A stretch of DNA of 64,000 nt from Naegleria gruberi. Taxonomy: Eukaryota. The DNA lies in the NCBI GenBank assembly GCA_000004985.1, contig GG738886.1; one strand, 5' to 3'. The notes beneath the pieces were generated by a model. That model was not told the DNA's origin. It saw nothing but the letters and a program-made list of their open reading frames with translations, and did no database searches. Shown here piece after piece: positions 1 to 63,490 of the stretch (position 1 is the stretch's first letter; the number at the start of each line of letters is the position of its first letter). Position numbers and translations under genes: made by a program.

Positions 1-1012
1 TATGTTTATTCAATGATTCCTTTTGATAGTCATCATAGAAGTCCATTACTTTACAAGCCTTGTGAGCAAAATAAACAAGTCCAAGTCTGGTTCCTGAAGT
101 AATAGGAGCAACTTGATGTTTATATTTGTTGCCTTTGAACAATAGCAAATCACCAGGTTTAACAAATACCTTACAATTTTGCTCTGGAAACTCCAAATAC
201 CCTTCTTTCTCATCATAATCTCCCAAGTAAAATAAAACACTAGGTGTAGCATCACGGGTGTCCTTGTGAGCATTCTTGATTCTATGTTTCTCTATCTGTG
301 GTTCTAAATAGTTAAAAGCAGTGGATGGATAAATACAATTATTCAAAATATGATATGGGTGTGGTAACGATGTCAAATAATTAATTGTTCTTGGAGAGAG
401 TATTTCCAATGCAGCAGTAATTGTTTCATCTAGCATTGGATTTACAATTCCAATTAAATATTCTCCCAACTGTGTCTTTAGATCTGATGTAATATAATTC
501 ATAGGCATGTTATTCTCCAAAACTCCACTGTATCCATGATTTTTCTTTCTTGCCTCTTGGATTTTTAATAAATTTTCATTAAATTCCTGAATAATATCCT
601 TTTTCAACACTCCCGGTAAGAAAGCAAGATCTATTTGACCATCTTTCGAAATAATAAAATGTGGACTTGTTATTTTAGTAAACCACTTTTCCGTGTTAAA
701 TATTAAATTACTATTACTATAATCAACATTAAATTTCCGTTTTAATTTCTTTAATAATCCTTTAAGTCTGGTTTTTTTATAAAGACCACCCTTTTCACCT
801 TTTTTCACAGTCAATGATTCCTGCAAATTCACCGACACGGGTCCTAAGGAATGCGTATCAGTTAAAAGGCTAGTAGATGGCTTTTGTCTTTTGTTATCAT
901 TTTTGTTGTTGTTATTGTTGTTCCTTCTTTTCGTTATTGTTGTTATTGATGTTGTTGTTCTTGATGTTTGTTGATGACATTTTTTATTGTTATTTCTTGT
1001 TGACCGTTCTTG
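1..1012 (-). CDS. TET/JBP-family 2OG-Fe(II) dioxygenase (NgTet1-like), 3' end beyond window, no in-frame ATG
   Basis: Uninterrupted minus-strand frame from 1012 down to 1. The translation ...TDTHSLGPVSVN...TEKWFTKITSPHFIISKDGQIDLAFLPGVL...HGYSGVLENNMPMNYITSDL...SPRTINYL...LNNCIYPSTAFNYL...AHKDTRDATPSVLFYLG...EGYLEF..NCKVFVKPGDLLLFKGNKYKHQVAPITSGTRLGLVYFAHK closely matches, from memory, Naegleria gruberi Tet1 (HxD...H...R..LVYFAHK catalytic signature). The ORF track missed it because the frame lacks a start codon. Confidence 0.85.
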
Positions 1013-3880: not shown

Positions 3881-4567
3881 TTAGAAGAAATGGAATTCAT
3901 CTTCATCATCGTACTTTATCTTCGTATCATAAGCAAAATGCATCGTGACTTCACCAGATTCAGTATCAAAAATAAAGGAAATGTTCTTCACTTGTAAAAG
4001 ATATTGGGTAACAATGTAGTTGTCCTCTATCTGGGTGGCACTAGTAATGACTTGTTGACCCCAGTTATCAAATATATCCAATACAGGAAGATGAGATGTA
4101 AATCTATATCCAATACAAGGAACCTTATACTTAATGCCATGTCTTGTAACTGTTCTATCAGAGTGGAAAAAGGTAGCACCTAACATGCTTTGAAACATGA
4201 CTTGAAATACACCAAGTTCAACAGAGCCACATCCAACGTAACTTCTTTTATCAATACCTCCCAACTTCAGCAATCTATTGATTTTCACTCGAGCACAATT
4301 AGCCAATACTTGGAATGATCTGGCAGCAAAATCTTTCTCACTTTCGCATAAATCGTCATATGTGGTGGAAAGAGGTTGGATTCTTGGTAACCCGTGTTCC
4401 ATGATGATGTCTTTGAAGTCATATGAAGAAGTTTCCTCCTTTCGTTGTTGTTGGATTTGGAGGTCTACATGGTTGTTTGTTGGTGAAGTAATTGGCACAT
4501 CAAACATATCGATATCACCTTCATCCAAGATGGTCTCAGTGATATATACTTGTTGTTGTGTATTCAT
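3881..4567 (-). CDS. hypothetical protein (228 aa)
   Basis: ATG-initiated intact ORF with a compact intergenic fit. It contains VGCGSVELGVFQVMF, which weakly recalls the hG[GS]...h[DE]h[DE]h nucleotidyltransferase motif with the acidic residues replaced. Confidence 0.5.
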   Translation of the reverse strand: MNTQQQVYITETILDEGDIDMFDVPITSPTNNHVDLQIQQQRKEETSSYDFKDIIMEHGLPRIQPLSTTYDDLCESEKDFAARSFQVLANCARVKINRLLKLGGIDKRSYVGCGSVELGVFQVMFQSMLGATFFHSDRTVTRHGIKYKVPCIGYRFTSHLPVLDIFDNWGQQVITSATQIEDNYIVTQYLLQVKNISFIFDTESGEVTMHFAYDTKIKYDDEDEFHFF

Positions 4568-5083
4568 TGTGTTTGTTGGTTTTTTTGTTGTTGTTGTTGG
4601 TAGGAGAGAGTGATAGGGTCGTTCATTTTATAGTCTTTTTTTTTGTAAGAAAAATCATCATTTTCTACCAGGCTTAGCTTGGCCAGGGCATTTTTAGCTT
4701 TGATGTAAATTTCTAGTGATTCATAATTTTGAACATTGAAAAGAGTTTATTATGTTGATAATTGCTCTGAATCCACTTACCTCTGAGGTGACATCTTACA
4801 TTGGAGCAAATTCTGCTGCGCTAGTTGAAAGAAGATGGAAGAAGCAGTTGCTACTGAAATAATGGAAAGAAATATTATTAAGGAATTGTTAATAATAGAT
4901 GAGGTTAACATCAACCATTCGAATACATAACATGAATTGCAAATAGAAGACAAATGGCTTCTAGGAGCACATAGAGAGAGCACTCCATAACATTTTAGGT
5001 TTTGAAAATTAAAGTTCAACATTGTTCGATTCTAATTAAAAAGTTGCAAACAATTTTACCTTTCAAATTATTCATAAAAAAAA

Positions 5084-9556: not shown

Positions 9557-11635
9557 TTATTCATCATCCTCAATATCTTCGATTTCTTCTTCTGTTTCTG
9601 TTGTCTTTTCAAGAGTTATCTTTTTCTTCTTTGGTTCAATATCACAACCAATAGATTTCAGTACAATTGAAACTTGATCGTATTTGATATGTCTAGAAAT
9701 TGTAATATTTCCCTTAAAACCAATGACAACAATGTTGTCATGAGAATCTTCATCTTCGTCTTTAATCTTAACTAAAACACCACCTGGTTCCATTTGTGAA
9801 ATTTTTTCAGCTTCTTCCTTTTGACCATTTTCTTCGAAAATCTTTGGTGAAACTTGAGGTTCAACTAAGAATTTGATAAAGTTTTCACGATTCAATTCAA
9901 TTTTTCTGTGTGAGTTAGTATTATCCCAGAGTAATGTTGCAGCTTCTTGTGTCATTCTATAACGACATCTCAAAAATTGAGCCTTATTTCTAGCAAAAAC
10001 TCTAATACCACAGTTGATAATGTTAAATTGTTGGCCATCATTCATGTTATGTTCAACAAATTTACGAACGGATGGAGAAATATACATAACTTTTCTGACA
10101 CTGTCAAGTTCTGTGGCACTGTCAGTAGTTCTAAGACAAAATTGTTCATTCTTGAAGTTATCTCTATTAACACCATAAAAATCAAGAATTTTTTCAAGTT
10201 TTTCTGGTTCCATAGATTGAATAGTATCCTTTTGAATACCTCTTCCCTTGAATTGTTTGATTGTTTCTTCAGTATTTTCATTATATTCAGAAATTGGTTC
10301 ATCCAAATCGGCAACCTTCTTAAAGTGAGCAATATAGAAACCACCAGTATTATTTTGATTTGGTAAAATTCTCATAGTGTAATGCATATTCATATCCTTA
10401 ACATCATCTTTAGCAAATTCACTTTCAGTAATTCTGTTATCAGAGTTATATTTACGGGCATATTCGAAAGATGGTAATAATTCTCCTTTCTTTGAAGTAA
10501 CAACCCAATTTGTCATACCTGGCTTGTACTTTAATGATGGGTATCTAGAAGATAAATCTTGTAAAACAAGCTTTCCCTTTGTTCTTCTAATAATTTCAGC
10601 AACTACAGCTTCATCTTCAATAGGATTTAATGTACATGTACTATATACAATTTCACCTCCAACATTTAACATATCAAAAGCTCTCAAAACACAATCAACT
10701 TGTAATTTGTGAAGACCATGACCCATATTTGCCTTCCATTGTCTCCAAACTTGTGGTGATTTTCTGATGGTACCATCTCCACTACACATGATATCACAGA
10801 GAACCTTATCAAATTTGAGTTTTGGTTCAGTAGTAAATTGTGGATACTTTGTAGCATCATGATTTGTAATCATCAAATGTGGGAATAAAAAGTTCAATCT
10901 TTGAAGTTGGTGAACTAATAAATAAGCTCTTTTAACATCATTATCATTGGCAATAACAAATCCCGAAATGTTCTTTGAATCTCCTCCACTACTTTGATAG
11001 AGTAATTCCACAAGTTGTGATGTTTTAGAACCTGGAGCAGCACACATATCAAGAACCTTATCAGATGGTTTCCAATTTGTAAACATCAATGGTGGTAACA
11101 TACTGACAACTTCTTGTCTACAGAAATTACCCTTTTCAGTTTCTCTCATTAAAAAATTTCTAAATTCAGAAAATTCTGGCTGTTTTCTTAATAAATTCTT
11201 TGTAACATGGTCATGCATTTGCCACACAAGATCATCAGGAATAAATGGAACAGGTTTTAAAGAGGCATATTCTGGTTCTGTTTCAACCTTTGATGGTTCA
11301 TGAAGATATTGAGAAACTGCACTGTCATCAATTCTGATTTTAGAAATAGCTTCAGCAAAATTCCTAATCTTTTGTTTTAATTTTTCTTGACTAGATTTTG
11401 GAATTGATTGATTAATTCTGAAAGAAATTGGTAAAGTTTTTCTAAAAGCATCCACCATATCCTTTAATTCCTCTTGTGAGTCAACAACTCTTTGTTGATC
11501 GAAATAATATTGTTCAAAAATTTTGTTTGTTTTTAAATCACCCTTTCTGGTCTTTTCCGGAACCCAAACATTCTTTGATTCTGTTGTTGTTGAAGATGAT
11601 GATGTTTCAGTAGTGGTAGTCGGTTGTTGGCTCAT
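9557..11635 (-). CDS. NSUN2: tRNA (cytosine-5)-methyltransferase, NOL1/NOP2/Sun family (NSUN2/Trm4-like)
   Basis: Contains DMCAAPGSKT (SAM-binding motif), DKVLCDIMCSGDGTIRK (motif IV Cys) and IVYSTCTLNPIEDEAVV (motif VI Cys), 692 aa. Confidence 0.85.
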   Translation of the reverse strand: MSQQPTTTTETSSSSTTTESKNVWVPEKTRKGDLKTNKIFEQYYFDQQRVVDSQEELKDMVDAFRKTLPISFRINQSIPKSSQEKLKQKIRNFAEAISKIRIDDSAVSQYLHEPSKVETEPEYASLKPVPFIPDDLVWQMHDHVTKNLLRKQPEFSEFRNFLMRETEKGNFCRQEVVSMLPPLMFTNWKPSDKVLDMCAAPGSKTSQLVELLYQSSGGDSKNISGFVIANDNDVKRAYLLVHQLQRLNFLFPHLMITNHDATKYPQFTTEPKLKFDKVLCDIMCSGDGTIRKSPQVWRQWKANMGHGLHKLQVDCVLRAFDMLNVGGEIVYSTCTLNPIEDEAVVAEIIRRTKGKLVLQDLSSRYPSLKYKPGMTNWVVTSKKGELLPSFEYARKYNSDNRITESEFAKDDVKDMNMHYTMRILPNQNNTGGFYIAHFKKVADLDEPISEYNENTEETIKQFKGRGIQKDTIQSMEPEKLEKILDFYGVNRDNFKNEQFCLRTTDSATELDSVRKVMYISPSVRKFVEHNMNDGQQFNIINCGIRVFARNKAQFLRCRYRMTQEAATLLWDNTNSHRKIELNRENFIKFLVEPQVSPKIFEENGQKEEAEKISQMEPGGVLVKIKDEDEDSHDNIVVIGFKGNITISRHIKYDQVSIVLKSIGCDIEPKKKKITLEKTTETEEEIEDIEDDE

Positions 11636-11759: not shown

Positions 11760-12110
11760 AGAGAATGCCATGCAACCCTCGCCAGTAGTCTGAATTGTGT
11801 TACAGCCCAGTGAGCTGTGTTGTACATCTAACTAAACTTTTGCGGTGTCATCCCAGCCGTTTCAATTGAGAGTTTCCTCCCAAGCCCATTTCTGGTTCTG
11901 GGATATTAGCATTATTGATTTACCAACCTCACTTCTCGTGAGTAAACAACACCTCAGACCTTCCCAGGAGTTATGGTTAATGTGAGTGTTCTTACTTGTT
12001 TAAAGTAATCTCGTATGTATTCTCCTCAATACGTCCAAGCTCAAGATGCAAGCAGACCCCGAAGATTAAATGTAATTTGCATCCTTGTGAAAGATTGGAT
12101 ATTTTTTAGG
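11760..12110. other. GC-elevated ORF-free island (candidate ncRNA gene or regulatory element)
   Basis: About 45% GC against roughly 30% around it, with no ORF in any frame. It contains gctcaagatgcaagcagacc, which matches 17 of 20 positions with a motif in the 21850-22500 island. Confidence 0.25.
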
Positions 12111-16964: not shown

Positions 16965-18132
16965 TTAACATATAATACATGAATCCTTTTCCTTTGTTGG
17001 TGGAACTGTTTGTTCTTTTGGATAATTTGGAGAGTCAAGATTGTGTTTAGCAACCAAATATTTCTCCCACTGAATGGTGAGGAGATTCTTGTAAATGTCA
17101 GTGGATGGTTCCTCTGTAACAATTCTAAACTCTTGAGGTCCATTCATGATAATTTCTCTGTTTGCACCACTCCAACTGAATAGACACTATTTTGATTAGA
17201 GAAAGAATAAAAGATTCATTACTTACAGGGCCAGCTCCATTGTGAAATGGATTAATTTCAATAATTGTTACACCCTTAGTTGGTGAAACAAAGAAATCAA
17301 CGACGAATGAAGGATGGGGAATTCTCTCAATGCAAAACCCATTGAAGAACTCATTAATTTTCTTTAAAATTTCTTCTTTTTGAGCAATTAAATCATCAAA
17401 CTTGAAATCACAAAAGTATTGAGAAATGGCGTTCAATTTCTTTTCGTGTACGAAACATCTAAATTCAAATTGAGGCAATTCAATCATTTCTTCGTTCCAC
17501 TCTCTTAAAATTATCTTACTTTCGTACAATTTCTCACCAAATCCAGTGTTCTTTTGCAAATCCTCATAAATTCTCTGTGATCTTCCCAATAATTCCATTG
17601 CAGATTTTCCACTATTAATTTTCATCGACTTGTTCATTGCTTTAAGGAAAGCAACACAAATATTATTTGGTGTCCTGTCAGAAACTCTTTCCACTTCCTT
17701 ATTTAATTGATTTTGATAACTTTCATCATTATGACACTTCCATGGTACATCTTTTGGACTTCTTGTATTCAATTTAACAAAAGCTCCATCATTAAACTCT
17801 GTATGAGCTGCCAAACATTCATCAATTCTTTTTTCAACATTTTCCAATAAAACAACTTCTTCACTAGTTAAACTTGTTGTTTTTTCATAGGTTTTTGCAT
17901 TCACTTTAAACAAGGATATTAAAGCCAAGGCTTCTTGATAGGATAAATCAACACTTCTAGTTTTGAAGGTAAAAGGTTCCAGCTCTGCAGTACACCATGA
18001 TTCAATTCCGAAACAATTTTGATAATGCTTTCTTCTGTATTGTTCAATTTGATGATCGGCAACTCCTAATTCTCTGATTTGATCATCAGATAGTAAAAAA
18101 GGGCTGGAATAGAAAGAAGGTTGTTGTGACAT
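16965..18132 (-). CDS. CDC123: Cdc123 (D123) family ATP-grasp protein, 2 exons
   Basis: Contains FVKLNTRSPKD, EFRCFV and VTIIEINPFHNGAGP. A GTAAGTAAT donor follows GP (exon 1 18132..17227). A 40-nt intron (17187..17226) precedes exon 2 (17186..16965), which begins CLFSW and matches the human CDC123 LFTWEEL region. Confidence 0.75.
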
Positions 18133-18232
18133 TTTTTTGTTGGATAAAGTTCGTTTGAACTTGGTACTTTTACAAATTACAAGATAAGGTTATTGTATTA
18201 TATAATCATAGAAAAATCCAAAATGAACACCA

Positions 18233-18315
18233 GCCCGCGTAGCAGAGTGGTCAAATGCGTAAGACTTAAGATCTTATCCCGAATGGGTTCGTGGGTTCGA
18301 ACCCCACCGCTGGCA
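18233..18315 (+). tRNA. tRNA-Leu(UAA)-like, long variable arm, one C.U mismatch in acceptor stem
   Basis: GCCCGCG-T-AGCAGAGTGGTCAAATGCG-TAAGACTTAAGATCTTA-variable arm-GTGGGTTCGAACCCCAC-CGCTGGC-A followed by TTTCCTTTT. The architecture parallels eukaryotic tRNA-Leu. Confidence 0.6.
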
Positions 18316-18446
18316 TTTCCTTTTACCTTTGACAGAAAGAAATGGAACTTGAGACTTAATGTATCTTATATGATGTCTATTGACCAGAATTAATATTTTA
18401 AAGTTCCATTCTAACAATTTACAAATTAATTTCCAAAGATAAAAAA

Positions 18447-19595
18447 ATGGGTCAATCACAACCTCAGAAAATTGCACCACCACCACCTGTTTGCTCCTCA
18501 TCTACATCATCATCTTCAATGCCTTTCATTAATTCGGATCGTGTTGAACAACTTAAAAAATCATCTCTCATCAACAAGTTGGCAAATCCTAAAATGTTTC
18601 CAAACAAGATTTTTCATGATTTAATCGAATCAAAAAGTGATCTGAAGAGTGTTGAGAAATATGCAGTTTATAATTATGAAAATTGTTCAATTTTTGAAAA
18701 GGAATTGCCAGATGAATTATTTATTTGTATTTTGGGATTTTTAATGAATCATGAACTTTTCAAATTACAACGAGTTTCCAAAAATTTCAAATATTATTGG
18801 ACTCAAAATAGTTTTTTATGGAGAGGAAGATTGTTGGATGATTACAATAAGATTTTCATGTATTTTAAACCAATTATGCAATCACCAAACAATAGTATTG
18901 TATATTATCATCACTTTATACAAACAATTTTAAGTTCGTACAAAGAAAAATCAGATGTACCCAACTCTATGATTTGTAAACAAGTTTTAATGGGAATGGA
19001 TCAATGTGGTAAATCTGAACTAGCTAAATTATTTTCAGATTCAACAAGATTATTTGATTCAAAATATTCTCGAACCATTGGAGTTGAGTTTTATTCAAAA
19101 GGTTATGAGTATAATAATAATTTACATTGCAAAATTCAATTATGGGATACTGGTGGACATGCAAGGTTTCAATCAATTGCATCAGCCTATAAAAGAGGTT
19201 CCAAGACTATCATTTATTGCTTTGATTTGAGTGATGAAGAGTCTTTTGATCGAATGAAGGAACTTATTGACAATAATAGTGAAAAACCTCAAAATACTCC
19301 TTGGAATGATTATTTACAATGTGAAAGGTTAAGTATGATAATTATTGGATTGAAGAGAGATTTAGTAAGAAAGGTGAAAATGAGTCGAATTGAAAATCTC
19401 CTCCAACAGTTTGTACCCATTATTGATGGTATTTCATTGAAAGATTTGAAAGTTCAATATTTTGAGCTAAGTTGTAAAACTGATGCCAGATGTTACATTC
19501 AATTCCCTCTATTATTTGGATTATTGATGAGTGAGGAAGTAATGATTGAGGATGCATCTATTGACAAGAAGGTAATGGCGGAAATAAAAACTTGA
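18447..19595 (+). CDS. F-box + Rab-like small GTPase (catalytic Gln to His)
   Basis: F-box LPDELFICILGFLMNHELFKLQRVSKNF. P-loop GMDQCGKSEL, switch I YSRTIGVEF, WDTGGHARF in place of WDTAGQE, and GLKRD in place of NKxD. Confidence 0.65.
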   Translation: MGQSQPQKIAPPPPVCSSSTSSSSMPFINSDRVEQLKKSSLINKLANPKMFPNKIFHDLIESKSDLKSVEKYAVYNYENCSIFEKELPDELFICILGFLMNHELFKLQRVSKNFKYYWTQNSFLWRGRLLDDYNKIFMYFKPIMQSPNNSIVYYHHFIQTILSSYKEKSDVPNSMICKQVLMGMDQCGKSELAKLFSDSTRLFDSKYSRTIGVEFYSKGYEYNNNLHCKIQLWDTGGHARFQSIASAYKRGSKTIIYCFDLSDEESFDRMKELIDNNSEKPQNTPWNDYLQCERLSMIIIGLKRDLVRKVKMSRIENLLQQFVPIIDGISLKDLKVQYFELSCKTDARCYIQFPLLFGLLMSEEVMIEDASIDKKVMAEIKT

Positions 19596-19604
19596 TGAGC
19601 ACCA

Positions 19605-19687
19605 GCCCGCGTAGCAGAGTGGTCAAATGCGTAAGACTTAAGATCTTATCCCGAATGGGTTCGTGGGTTCGAACCCCACCGCTGGCA
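19605..19687 (+). tRNA. second identical copy of tRNA-Leu(UAA)-like gene
   Basis: Identical 83-nt sequence plus about 8 nt upstream and about 37 nt downstream flank shared with the copy at 18233. Confidence 0.6.
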
Positions 19688-19796
19688 TTTCCTTTTTCTT
19701 TGCCAGAAAGAAATGGAACTTGATCGAATATATTGCTAAATAATTGCTTTTATATTCAATTTTTGAAATGCAAGTGTGAAAATCCATTCCAAAAAA

Positions 19797-49805: not shown

Positions 49806-49878
49806 TGCCGACACCAGGGATCGAACCAGGGACCTTAAGATCTTCAGTCTTACGCTCTCCCAACTGAGCTATGTCGGC
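49806..49878 (-). tRNA. tRNA-Phe(GAA)
   Basis: The reverse complement GCCGACATAGCTCAGTTGGGAGAGCGTAAGACTGAAGATCTTAAGGTCCCTGGTTCGATCCCTGGTGTCGGCA gives a perfect cloverleaf with anticodon GAA and a downstream T-run. Confidence 0.9.
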
Positions 49879-61015: not shown

Positions 61016-61133
61016 GGCTACGGCCATATCACGATGAATGCACCTCATCCCGTCCGATTTGAGAAGTTAAGCATCGTCGAGCCACATCAGTACTGAGGTT
61101 GGAGACAACTTGGGAACCTGTGGTGCTGTAGTC
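61016..61133 (+). rRNA. 5S rRNA
   Basis: GGCTACGGCCATATCACGATGAATGCACCTCATCCCGTCCGATTTGAGAAGTTAAGCATCGTCGAGCCACATCAGTACTGAGGTTGGAGACAACTTGGGAACCTGTGGTGCTGTAGTC plus TTTT; the termini pair as helix I. Confidence 0.9.
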
Positions 61134-61289
61134 TTTTAATCTTAGATAAATCAACAGGATTCAAATTGTGCGTATTGAGCTTGAGAGGTTATAAATAACA
61201 TTATGAACTATTGTAAATATTGTGTGAATGATTTAGGTTTTATTTACAATGATTTGCCTAGGTTTACAACATTTTGAGTTAAATGGAGA

Positions 61290-61505
61290 TTACCACTTTT
61301 TGAATTGTTTGTTTCTCATTTCTAAAGTATTATGTGATTGAGATTTGGAAGTTTTGCTTGTTTCACTTCCAATAGAATTCAATGTTTTGTAATCAATTAA
61401 ATTTCTTTTTCTTGTTCCACCCACAATATTATCCAGAGAAATTTCGGAAATAAATTGTGAAGTGTTATTGGAGGAATTATACATATTTCTTCTTGTTGAG
61501 ACCAT
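61290..61505 (-). CDS. diverged paralog (B') of the small basic SGTRxRNxIDY protein family
   Basis: DNIVGGTRKRNLIDYKTLNSIGSE compares to SNIISGTRHRNNIDYHHANLNGKQ. The ATG lies inside the shared A segment, and the gene is divergently oriented from the B copy. Confidence 0.45.
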   Translation of the reverse strand: MVSTRRNMYNSSNNTSQFISEISLDNIVGGTRKRNLIDYKTLNSIGSETSKTSKSQSHNTLEMRNKQFKKW

Positions 61506-61905
61506 TTTCTTATTGTTATTTTGTTTTGTTGGGGAAATTTCATCATCCGATCAACAGTTATTTATTTCCAGCTAGAAATGCTTCATCAAATTCTTCAAAT
61601 TCTTCCGAAGATAGAATTCCAACTAAAACACAATGGACAAGATCTAAACCAATTGATTTATCTAAAAGATTACCATTATTTGATATTGATACTTCTAATA
61701 TTATAAGTGGAACTAGACATCGTAATAATATTGATTATCATCATGCAAATTTAAATGGTAAACAAATTTCAGTGAAAAGATCTTCGAAAAATTCAATTGA
61801 AAAGAGAGCTAAACAACAATCGAACACCACAACTAAGAAGATTACCAAATCGAAAAAGATGTAAATTACAACTTGTAAATAATTCAGTAAATTGTAAATA
61901 AAATA
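61502..61905 (+). repeat. dispersed repeat copy 2 (A 61502..61570 + B 61569..61905) with intact small basic ORF frame (no in-frame ATG)
   Basis: About 90% identical to the inverted copy at 22586..22979, with near-identical sequence through the stop codon and 45 nt beyond. A ends ttatttatttccag, which is acceptor-like. Confidence 0.7.
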
Positions 61906-62616: not shown

Positions 62617-63075
62617 ATGCAATTATTTGTCAAGACACTCACTGGAAGAACTATCACTTTGGAGGTTGAATCTAATGATTCAATTGAAAACGTGAAAAGA
62701 AAAGTACAAGATAAGGAAGGAATTTCACCAGATCAACAAAGACTCATCTTTGCTGGGAAACAATTGGAAGATGGCAGAACTATTAATGATTACAACATTC
62801 AAAAAGATTCAACTCTTCATTTGGTGTTGAGATTAAGAGGAGGAATGCAACTTTTTGTAAAAACTTTAACTGGAAAGACAATCACTATTGAAATGGAATC
62901 GAATGATACTGTTGAGAATATGAAACAAAAGATATTTGATAAGGAAGGTATTCCTTCAGATCAACAACGATTGATTTATGCCGGTAAGCAATTGGAAGAT
63001 GGAAGAACTATTGGTGATTACAATCTTCAAAAGGATTCAACTGTGCATTTAGTATTGAGATTGAGAGGTGGTTAA
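62617..63075 (+). CDS. divergent di-ubiquitin (two non-identical 76-aa repeats, ends GG-stop)
   Basis: [19 protein letters not shown]...LRLRGG followed by [19 protein letters not shown]...LRLRGG. K6, K27, K29, K33, K48 and K63 are retained, but each repeat differs from canonical ubiquitin at many positions. Confidence 0.85.
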
Positions 63076-63300: not shown

Positions 63301-63418
63301 GGCTACGGCCATATCACGATGAATGCACCTCATCCCGTCCGATTTGAGAAGTTAAGCATCGTAGAGCCACATCAGTACTGAGGTTGGAGACAACTTGGGA
63401 ACCTGTGGTGCTGTAGTC
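63301..63418 (+). rRNA. 5S rRNA (second copy)
   Basis: Identical to 61016..61133 except one substitution (cgtAgagcc), followed by a T-run. Confidence 0.9.
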
Positions 63419-63490
63419 TTTTTACCTTGGATAAATCAATAGGATCACTTAAATATCGTTAATGGATTAATTTATTAGAACATGGATACC

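Follow-up and report, generated by a model that had tools for sequence, protein, structure and literature searches.

The DNA analyzed here is a 64,000-nucleotide stretch of contig GG738886.1 from the Naegleria gruberi assembly GCA_000004985.1, hereafter referred to as the window. It is nuclear DNA of this heterolobosean amoeba, in keeping with a GC content of 29–36%, long, intron-poor open reading frames (ORFs), an RNase P RNA of the nuclear type, three tRNA genes, and two 5S rRNA genes at dispersed positions. Two copies of a short unit, each carrying a tRNA-Leu(UAA) gene, lie in the same orientation on either side of a protein gene that encodes both an F-box and a Ras/Rab domain (Table 1). 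Copy 1 occupies the 314-nt divergent intergenic region between the D123/CDC123 homologue on the minus strand and the F-box-Rab gene on the plus strand. The tRNA of copy 2 begins only 9 nt past the TGA stop codon of the F-box-Rab gene, and the unit containing it lies approximately 74 nt upstream of the ATG of a gene for an ELO-like membrane protein. Each unit precedes the ATG of a plus-strand gene by 74–95 nt.

The bracketed ORF matches the NCBI entry "rab family member [Naegleria gruberi]" with 100% identity and carries both domains expected from a sequence-only reading of the locus, which had described the repeats as bracketing an F-box-Rab-like gene. By eye, the GTPase domain is divergent, with DTGGHARF in place of DTAGQE and LKRD in place of NKxD. 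The protein belongs to a Naegleria family: other N. gruberi scaffolds encode several paralogues, and N. lovaniensis has a relative, all at 30–40% identity. Because of this Naegleria family with its paralogues, the F-box-Rab gene is evidently an old resident family member and not imported cargo.

Table 1. Positions of the tRNA-Leu(UAA) repeat, its neighboring genes, and the 5S rRNA gene pair in the window.
Feature	Position	Strand	Remarks
D123/CDC123 homologue	17125–18132	-	Left neighbor of copy 1
Repeat unit, copy 1	18223–18352	+	130 nt; blastn and alignment; putative donor
tRNA-Leu(UAA), copy 1	18233–18315	+	ARAGORN, Rfam
A box, copy 1, TAGCAGAGTGG	18240–18250	+	Read from sequence
B box, copy 1, GGTTCGAACCC	18294–18304	+	Read from sequence
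3' flank, copy 1	18316–18352	+	T4 run 18321–18324 (likely Pol III terminator), then CAGAAAGAAATGGAACTTGA
AACTTGA, m1	18346–18352	+	Final 7 nt of unit copy 1
F-box-Rab ORF	18447–19595	+	Single exon, 382 aa; F-box residues 86–125, Ras/Rab domain 178–349
AACTTGA, m2	19589–19595	+	Directly left of copy 2; last codons and TGA stop of the F-box-Rab ORF
Repeat unit, copy 2	19595–19723	+	129 nt; blastn and alignment; putative derived copy
tRNA-Leu(UAA), copy 2	19605–19687	+	ARAGORN, Rfam; 83/83 identical to copy 1
3' flank, copy 2	19688–19723	+	T5 run 19693–19697; terminal AACTTGA 19717–19723 (m3)
5S rRNA genes	61016–61134 and 63301–63419	same orientation	1 nt different; 2285 bp apart

The repeated elements are canonical tRNA-Leu(UAA) genes

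ARAGORN calls Leu(UAA) for both elements, and Rfam assigns each of them a score of 57.8 bits with RF00005, compared to a gathering score of 29 bits. By this scoring the tRNA is canonical, and the central observation of the sequence-only reading, an identical tRNA-Leu(UAA) pair within direct repeats, holds at every position of the two genes. The tRNA belongs to class II, and its long stem-loop variable arm, UCCCGAAUGGGU, appears as an insert in the cmscan alignment. The anticodon loop, CUUAAGA, has U33, the anticodon UAA, and G37; U8 and A14 are present, and the discriminator base is A73. The terminal CCA is not encoded, A73 being followed by TTTCC, and a T-run is found 6 nt beyond the 3' end of the tRNA, consisting of four residues in copy 1 and five in copy 2. 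An Rfam search at E ≤ 1 found only the tRNA in the unit.

The single irregularity of the tRNA, present in both copies, is C4·U69, which cmscan marks as a non-standard pair and which corresponds to the C·U acceptor-stem mismatch noticed earlier. The eukaryotic leucine identity set comprises A73, C3–G70, A4–U69, G5–C68, a large variable region, and U8:A14 (Giege & Eriani 2023, PMC9976931, Table 1). Its acceptor pairs were determined for human tRNA-Leu and may differ in Naegleria; here, C3–G70 and G5–C68 are present, whereas 4:69 is C·U and not A–U. Because every other element of the leucine identity set is present, the mismatch looks like a replacement of A4 by C within an identity pair. To judge from these features, both elements represent true tRNA-Leu(UAA) genes; neither belongs to a repeat family or is a mobile element.

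A 25-mer comprising the T arm and the 3' acceptor strand gave 0 matches in JGI metagenomes, GTDB genomes, and IMG/VR, and a 21-mer from the anticodon arm gave a single metagenome match, to a distinct tRNA-Leu(UAA) belonging to another organism. The plus-strand frame is open through the entire unit, and peptides from this frame had no exact or homology match among 15 billion predicted proteins. A 42-residue protein gene at copy 2 (ATG at 19596 to TGA at 19723) was considered and rejected, because copy 1 is out of frame owing to the 1-nt indel and no such protein occurs in the collections.

The repeat has sharp limits and has diverged only in its flanks

The two copies are 96.9% identical (blastn, E = 2.5e-59). 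Each consists of a 10-nt 5' flank, the 83-nt tRNA, and a 3' flank of 37 nt in copy 1 and 36 nt in copy 2. The repeat itself is thus as first described, although its measured length is 130 and 129 nt instead of 128 bp; the original estimate of approximately 37 nt downstream of the tRNA agrees with the alignment, whereas that of approximately 8 nt upstream falls short of the 10 nt found. The 5' flank reads ATGA[A/G]CACCA, with one mismatch between the copies, and the 3' flanks differ by two substitutions and a 1-nt indel. In precursor transcripts, the copies would differ only at position −6 of the leader (A versus G) and in the trailer (UUUUA versus UUUUU). Beyond these limits, the ungapped in-register identity is 28–36% over 30–100 nt, which equals chance for this composition. 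The tRNA genes are spaced 1289 nt apart, copy 2 lying approximately 1.4 kb downstream of copy 1. The 20-mer CAGAAAGAAATGGAACTTGA of the 3' flank occurs exactly twice in the window, compared to 0.04 occurrences expected, and no third copy, partial copy, or flank fragment of the unit was found in the window or in the fetched Naegleria and Willaertia loci.

The pair displays the features of a segmental duplication, namely direct orientation, contiguous homology that includes untranscribed flank, and sharp breakpoints. Because the flanks are shared, the boundaries are sharp, and the orientation is the same, the two copies evidently descend from one segment of approximately 129 bp. The differences between them fall at 4 of the 47 flank positions and at none of the 83 tRNA positions (Fisher p = 0.016, or 0.045 with substitutions only). 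Since the flanks have diverged while the tRNA is unchanged, the duplication event is not brand new. The description of a recently duplicated tRNA gene in the sequence-only reading is therefore correct as to the duplication, but "recently" applies only in a relative sense. The tRNA portions have been kept intact, as the contrast with the flanks implies, by selection or gene conversion.

In the 19 long ORFs of the window, TTA is the commonest leucine codon (33%) and TTG accounts for 28%. Extra tRNA-Leu(UAA) genes would plausibly be useful, because TTA is the commonest leucine codon in these ORFs. Both copies probably supply tRNA for UUA, since their internal promoters and T-run terminators are intact and their identity has been held despite the drift of the flanks.

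No tRNA-Leu was found near D123 in N. fowleri or Willaertia magna, for which 10 kb upstream were read, and beyond D123 itself the window has no neighboring genes in common with the D123 loci of these two species. In these loci, the arrangement was thus not seen outside the N. gruberi lineage. The D123 contig of N. lovaniensis, which reaches only 493 nt upstream of the gene, gives no information on that side. In an environmental N. gruberi-like strain (ENA ERZ929261), the D123 contigs stop approximately 20 nt before copy 1.

A heptamer at the junction suggests how the second copy was made

The unit ends in the heptamer AACTTGA, and the same heptamer stands directly to the left of copy 2, at the very end of the F-box-Rab ORF (m1, m2, and m3 in Table 1). 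The base preceding m2 is A, compared to G preceding m1, and the match stops at 7 nt. If I denotes the unit minus its last 7 nt, m the heptamer, G' the gene segment 18353–19588, and P and Y the outer left and right sequences, the layout of the locus is P - I - m - G' - m - I - m - Y. AACTTGA occurs in the window at a frequency of 2.8e-4 per position, or 2.3e-4 when these three occurrences are excluded. The match was noticed post hoc, and when roughly ten alternative junction patterns are taken into account, p is ~2–3e-3; with this proviso, the in-register match is suggestive and unlikely to have arisen by chance. The microhomology at the other junction is only 1 nt, and no homology for the reverse polarity, with copy 1 as the inserted copy, was found at the inspected junctions. 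The heptamer is the sole recombination signature found, and it concerns how the repeat was made and not its use as a recombination substrate, which the sequence-only reading had suggested. A candidate remnant of a third unit, consisting of the last 35 nt of the ORF aligned with the 3' flank of the unit, was rejected as not significant, as 25–102 of the 2093 windows of an empirical null score equally.

We consider it likely that a local, short-range duplication at the DNA level, comprising a segment of approximately 129 bp from −10 to +37 relative to the tRNA, yielded two ordinary nuclear Pol III tRNA-Leu(UAA) genes. Within this account, we infer that copy 1 served as the source of copy 2, that copying proceeded by template switching, and that both genes are active. 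The ancestral order would have been D123, tRNA, F-box-Rab, ELO-like, and the empty site for copy 2 would have read ...GGAAATAAAAACTTGA joined directly to TCGAATATATT..., with the heptamer already present at the target. During replication or break repair, a nascent strand would have copied the end of the F-box-Rab ORF (...AAAACTTGA, position 19595) and then switched back by approximately 1.37 kb, thereby recopying 18224–18352, that is, the tRNA together with its own start region and terminator. Having made ...GGAACTTGA, the strand could then have re-annealed at the departure site by means of the 7-nt match and continued into TCGAAT.... The outcome would be a second complete tRNA gene directly behind the stop codon, where the 3' UTR/poly(A) region of the F-box-Rab gene must previously have been, with no target sequence lost. 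An AATAAA is present at 19583–19588, and the cleavage zone predicted for the F-box-Rab mRNA overlaps with the leader of tRNA copy 2 and with the 5' half of this tRNA. The same product could arise in two steps, through tandem duplication of the 1372-bp block of tRNA and gene, with the second gene copy then lost by deletion between the AACTTGA repeats. A one-step backward template switch would be the simplest reading.

A comparable arrangement of 5S rRNA genes

The two 5S rRNA genes of the window bracket an ORF with a CHZ domain and a di-ubiquitin gene, the locus of which is also covered by a further short contig of the environmental N. gruberi-like strain. They have approximately 17 nt of 5' flank and approximately 35–40 nt of 3' flank in common, with a divergence of approximately 15%, and no convincing AACTTGA-like junction signature was found at this pair. 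Retroposition cannot account for this 5S pair, because the shared 5' flank of the 5S genes is untranscribed. That the two 5S genes, too, share just short flanks raises the possibility that such family-specific elements are selected rather than recently inherited, which counts against reading the short shared flanks as a trace of duplication.

With a protein-coding interval between two Pol III genes at both places, the 64 kb contain two such sandwiches (n = 2), a hint of recurrent short-range copying of cassettes. In its general form, this would be a process in N. gruberi by which Pol III genes, both tRNA and 5S, are copied to nearby intergenic sites as minimal, self-contained cassettes (from about −10 or −17 to +37) through microhomology-guided template switching, perhaps set off when forks stall at strongly transcribed Pol III genes. 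We regard such a general process as unlikely. If true, it could account for the large tDNA complement of the genome, for which 924 tRNAscan-SE hits, corresponding to 883 tRNAs and 41 pseudogenes, have been reported in 41 Mb (Bermudez-Santana et al. 2010, PMC2888827), and it would predict many further cases of a protein gene enclosed between two Pol III genes.

Alternative origins of the pair

The identity of the tRNA parts next to non-identical flanks would also be expected if the two genes were older or independent, with flanks that are functional elements under selection (a start-site region, a terminator hairpin, or a downstream element) and coding parts homogenised by gene conversion. Such a history would likewise fit the position of each unit at a similar short distance ahead of a plus-strand ATG. 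The 3' flank can fold into a small hairpin that includes the T-run, but this hairpin is no better than those of shuffled sequences (z = −0.2 and −1.1), and the differences between the copies are not compensatory. A structured RNA in the 3' flank was rejected as a candidate on the basis of the shuffles and of the Rfam search described above. Furthermore, the flanks of the window's tRNA-Phe gene are unrelated to those of the unit, and because a Willaertia 5S gene lacks the N. gruberi 5S flanks, the 5S flanks are not conserved across genera. Selection on the flanks also leaves unexplained the recurrence of the unit's terminal 7 nt directly left of copy 2, and overall we consider this history quite improbable.

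The sequence-only reading had offered a tRNA-derived SINE-like repeat as one possibility, and this suggestion finds no support: the tRNA lacks none of its parts and scores as canonical, just 47 nt of the unit lie outside it, there is neither an A-rich or simple-repeat tail nor a target-site duplication outside the unit, and the 64 kb contain no third copy. More broadly, the 130-nt unit might be a genome-wide dispersed cassette, either as a SINE-like retroposon or as a DNA cassette by which Pol III genes are spread, and the two copies would be neighboring members of it. The unusually large tDNA complement of N. gruberi (924) is compatible with such dispersal, as are the −10 limit of the unit, which lies near the expected start of the Pol III transcript, and the resemblance of the two 5S genes to short cassettes (−17 to ~+38) that bracket protein genes. 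However, the unit has no poly(A), A-rich, or simple-repeat tail and no LINE-like 3' end, the 37 nt after the tRNA ending instead in ...GGAACTTGA, and its 3' limit, instead of coinciding with a terminator, is found 28 nt past the T4/T5 run. No target-site duplication is found outside either copy; the heptamer to the left of copy 2 matches the inner end of the unit and not the outer right flank. The tRNA is intact and not degenerate, and the lack of a third copy or fragment extends from the window to the fetched Naegleria and Willaertia loci. SINEs, moreover, make up just 0.04% of the N. fowleri genome (PMC6831594). We consider dispersal of this kind very unlikely. Within the window and the fetched loci, the pair is a duplication at a single locus of a canonically scoring tRNA, to that extent the outcome that the sequence-only reading had named in advance as speaking against it.

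Finally, a head-to-tail tRNA pair with a period of approximately 129 nt that was split by a 1236-bp F-box-Rab segment with a 7-bp target-site duplication, AACTTGA, would formally give the observed order (unit-AACTTGA-[18353–19588]-AACTTGA-unit), and closely spaced tRNA clusters are known in the related heterolobosean Willaertia, but this is highly improbable, as the segment has no terminal inverted repeats, transposase, or poly(A), its ORF would need to take its stop and the two codons before it from the duplicated target, and the gene belongs to the resident Naegleria family described above.

Significance and comparison with known systems

So far as can be read from the DNA, the pair stems from the ordinary local duplication of a tRNA gene that looks functional, and it is not a mobile element. 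It has little significance beyond annotation, but it allows the origin of one additional tRNA gene to be plausibly traced base by base. Specialists may be interested in two points, namely the landing site 9 nt past a stop codon and the occurrence of C4·U69 at a base pair that serves as a leucine identity element in human.

Several known systems resemble the pair in one respect or another. As with the att repeats of bacterial genomic islands at tRNA genes, tRNA-containing direct repeats bracket DNA, but the present repeats belong to a eukaryotic nucleus, the whole tRNA and its 5' flank are repeated, an integrase is absent, and the gene in between is resident. Like tRNA-derived SINEs, the units are present more than once and include tRNA-related sequence that contains an internal Pol III promoter; they differ from SINEs in that the tRNA is complete and canonical, that a tRNA-unrelated body, a LINE-related or A-rich tail, and flanking target-site duplications are all lacking, and that just two copies, adjacent to each other, were seen.

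Microhomology-mediated template switching of the FoSTeS/MMBIR type copies a short segment to a nearby position in direct orientation, without loss of target sequence and with a return at a short microhomology. The Naegleria pair has in common with such events the nearby direct copy, the intact target, and the microhomology at the return junction; it differs in that the mechanism would be deduced from one junction and that homology at the first switch is limited to 1 nt.

Further parallels come from a survey of short-range tRNA gene duplications in nuclear genomes of eukaryotes, among them that of N. gruberi itself, in which 77 close tDNA pairs were counted compared to 39 expected (PMC2888827). 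Pairs of the same isoacceptor on the same strand within the distance window of that survey numbered 8 compared to 1.02 expected, an approximately 8-fold excess (PMC2888827, supplement 2), and local duplication of tRNA genes is therefore already documented for this genome. Although the pair described here differs from the surveyed duplications in that the copied segment is only approximately 129 bp long, that an unrelated protein gene lies between the copies, that a 7-nt microhomology is present, and that the spacing of 1289 nt may exceed the pair window of the survey, it is like them in having the same isoacceptor, the same strand, close spacing, and an identical coding sequence (PMC2888827).

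The tRNA-Leu(UAA) precursor and the gene upstream of its second copy

Both copies of the tRNA-Leu(UAA) gene carry the C4.U69 mismatch in the acceptor stem, and in the first copy the 5' leader offers a potential alternative partner for the 3' acceptor strand. The sequence CCAGC, made up of the end of the leader and tRNA bases 1-2, could pair perfectly with GCUGG of that strand (18230-18234 versus the 18311-18315 region), forming a register-shifted helix in which U69 is paired with A-1. This helix dominates the minimum free energy fold of the precursor-length sequence and may be a by-product of the mismatch.

The second copy begins 9 nt after the stop codon of the F-box-Rab gene, directly ahead of which lies an AATAAA hexamer (region 19583-19604). 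If this hexamer is used, the poly(A) site of the F-box-Rab mRNA would land within the leader or 5' half of the second tRNA copy. The encoded protein (ORF 18447-19595, + strand) contains a divergent Rab-like domain, with DTGGHARF at switch II, where His replaces the catalytic Gln, and LKRD as its NKxD motif. Several N. gruberi paralogues, with identities of 30-40%, likewise combine an F-box with a Rab domain.

The whole repeat unit is open in one frame (19596-19723 and 18224-18393, both + strand). In the second copy this amounts to a 42-codon ORF running from ATG to TGA, the limits of which are exactly those of the repeat, and in the first copy the frame is shifted relative to it by a 1-nt indel. 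The predicted peptide had no match among 15 billion predicted proteins, and the open frame was therefore judged coincidental.

Other RNA genes and related loci

The remaining features are listed in the table. The sequences on either side of tRNA-Phe(GAA) bear no relation to the flanks of the tRNA-Leu unit. The nuclear RNase P RNA sits immediately downstream of the adjoining NSUN2-like gene.

Features in the window and on other contigs
Feature	Location	Strand	Remarks
NSUN2-like RNA methyltransferase gene	window 9557-11635	-	
Nuclear RNase P RNA	window 11778-12039	-	Rfam RF00009, 66.8 bits
tRNA-Phe(GAA)	window 49806-49878	-	67.9 bits
5S rRNA gene	window 61016-61134	+	
CHZ-domain ORF	window 61457-61864		between the 5S rRNA genes
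Di-ubiquitin gene	window 62617-63075		between the 5S rRNA genes
5S rRNA gene	window 63301-63419	+	
tRNA-Val(AAC), tRNA-Ile(AAU)	L003 cluster, tRNAs 1-2	+	Willaertia magna
tRNA-Leu(UAA)	L006 5888-5973	-	metagenome contig OBEQ010394819.1, AT-rich organism

A strain near-identical to N. gruberi NEG-M is present in a metagenome sample (ENA ERZ929261, run ERR1078381; contigs L004, L005 and L007); the two do not differ in their D123 and di-ubiquitin proteins, and a few SNPs separate them in intergenic DNA. The contigs of the metagenome strain are short, the two covering D123 (L004, L005) stopping ~20 nt ahead of the first tRNA-Leu copy. In W. magna (L003), three tRNA genes are tightly clustered ~70 nt apart (4397-4768, + strand). 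The third, of 82 nt (Rfam 58.1 bits), was left untyped by ARAGORN with a 4-base anticodon 'tcat', and could be tRNA-Sec(UCA) or another long-arm tRNA.

Comparison with other Pol III loci

The tRNA-Leu pair and the 5S rRNA pair share one layout, in which two Pol III genes enclose protein-coding DNA. The two 5S genes differ by 1 nt, have the same orientation and lie at a distance of 2285 bp. Their common flank comprises only ~17 nt on the 5' side and ~35-40 nt on the 3' side (~15% diverged), and is not shared by the Willaertia 5S gene. The L006 tRNA-Leu(UAA) matches the Naegleria gene at 38/39 positions of the D and anticodon arms, but differs from it in the acceptor stem and variable arm.
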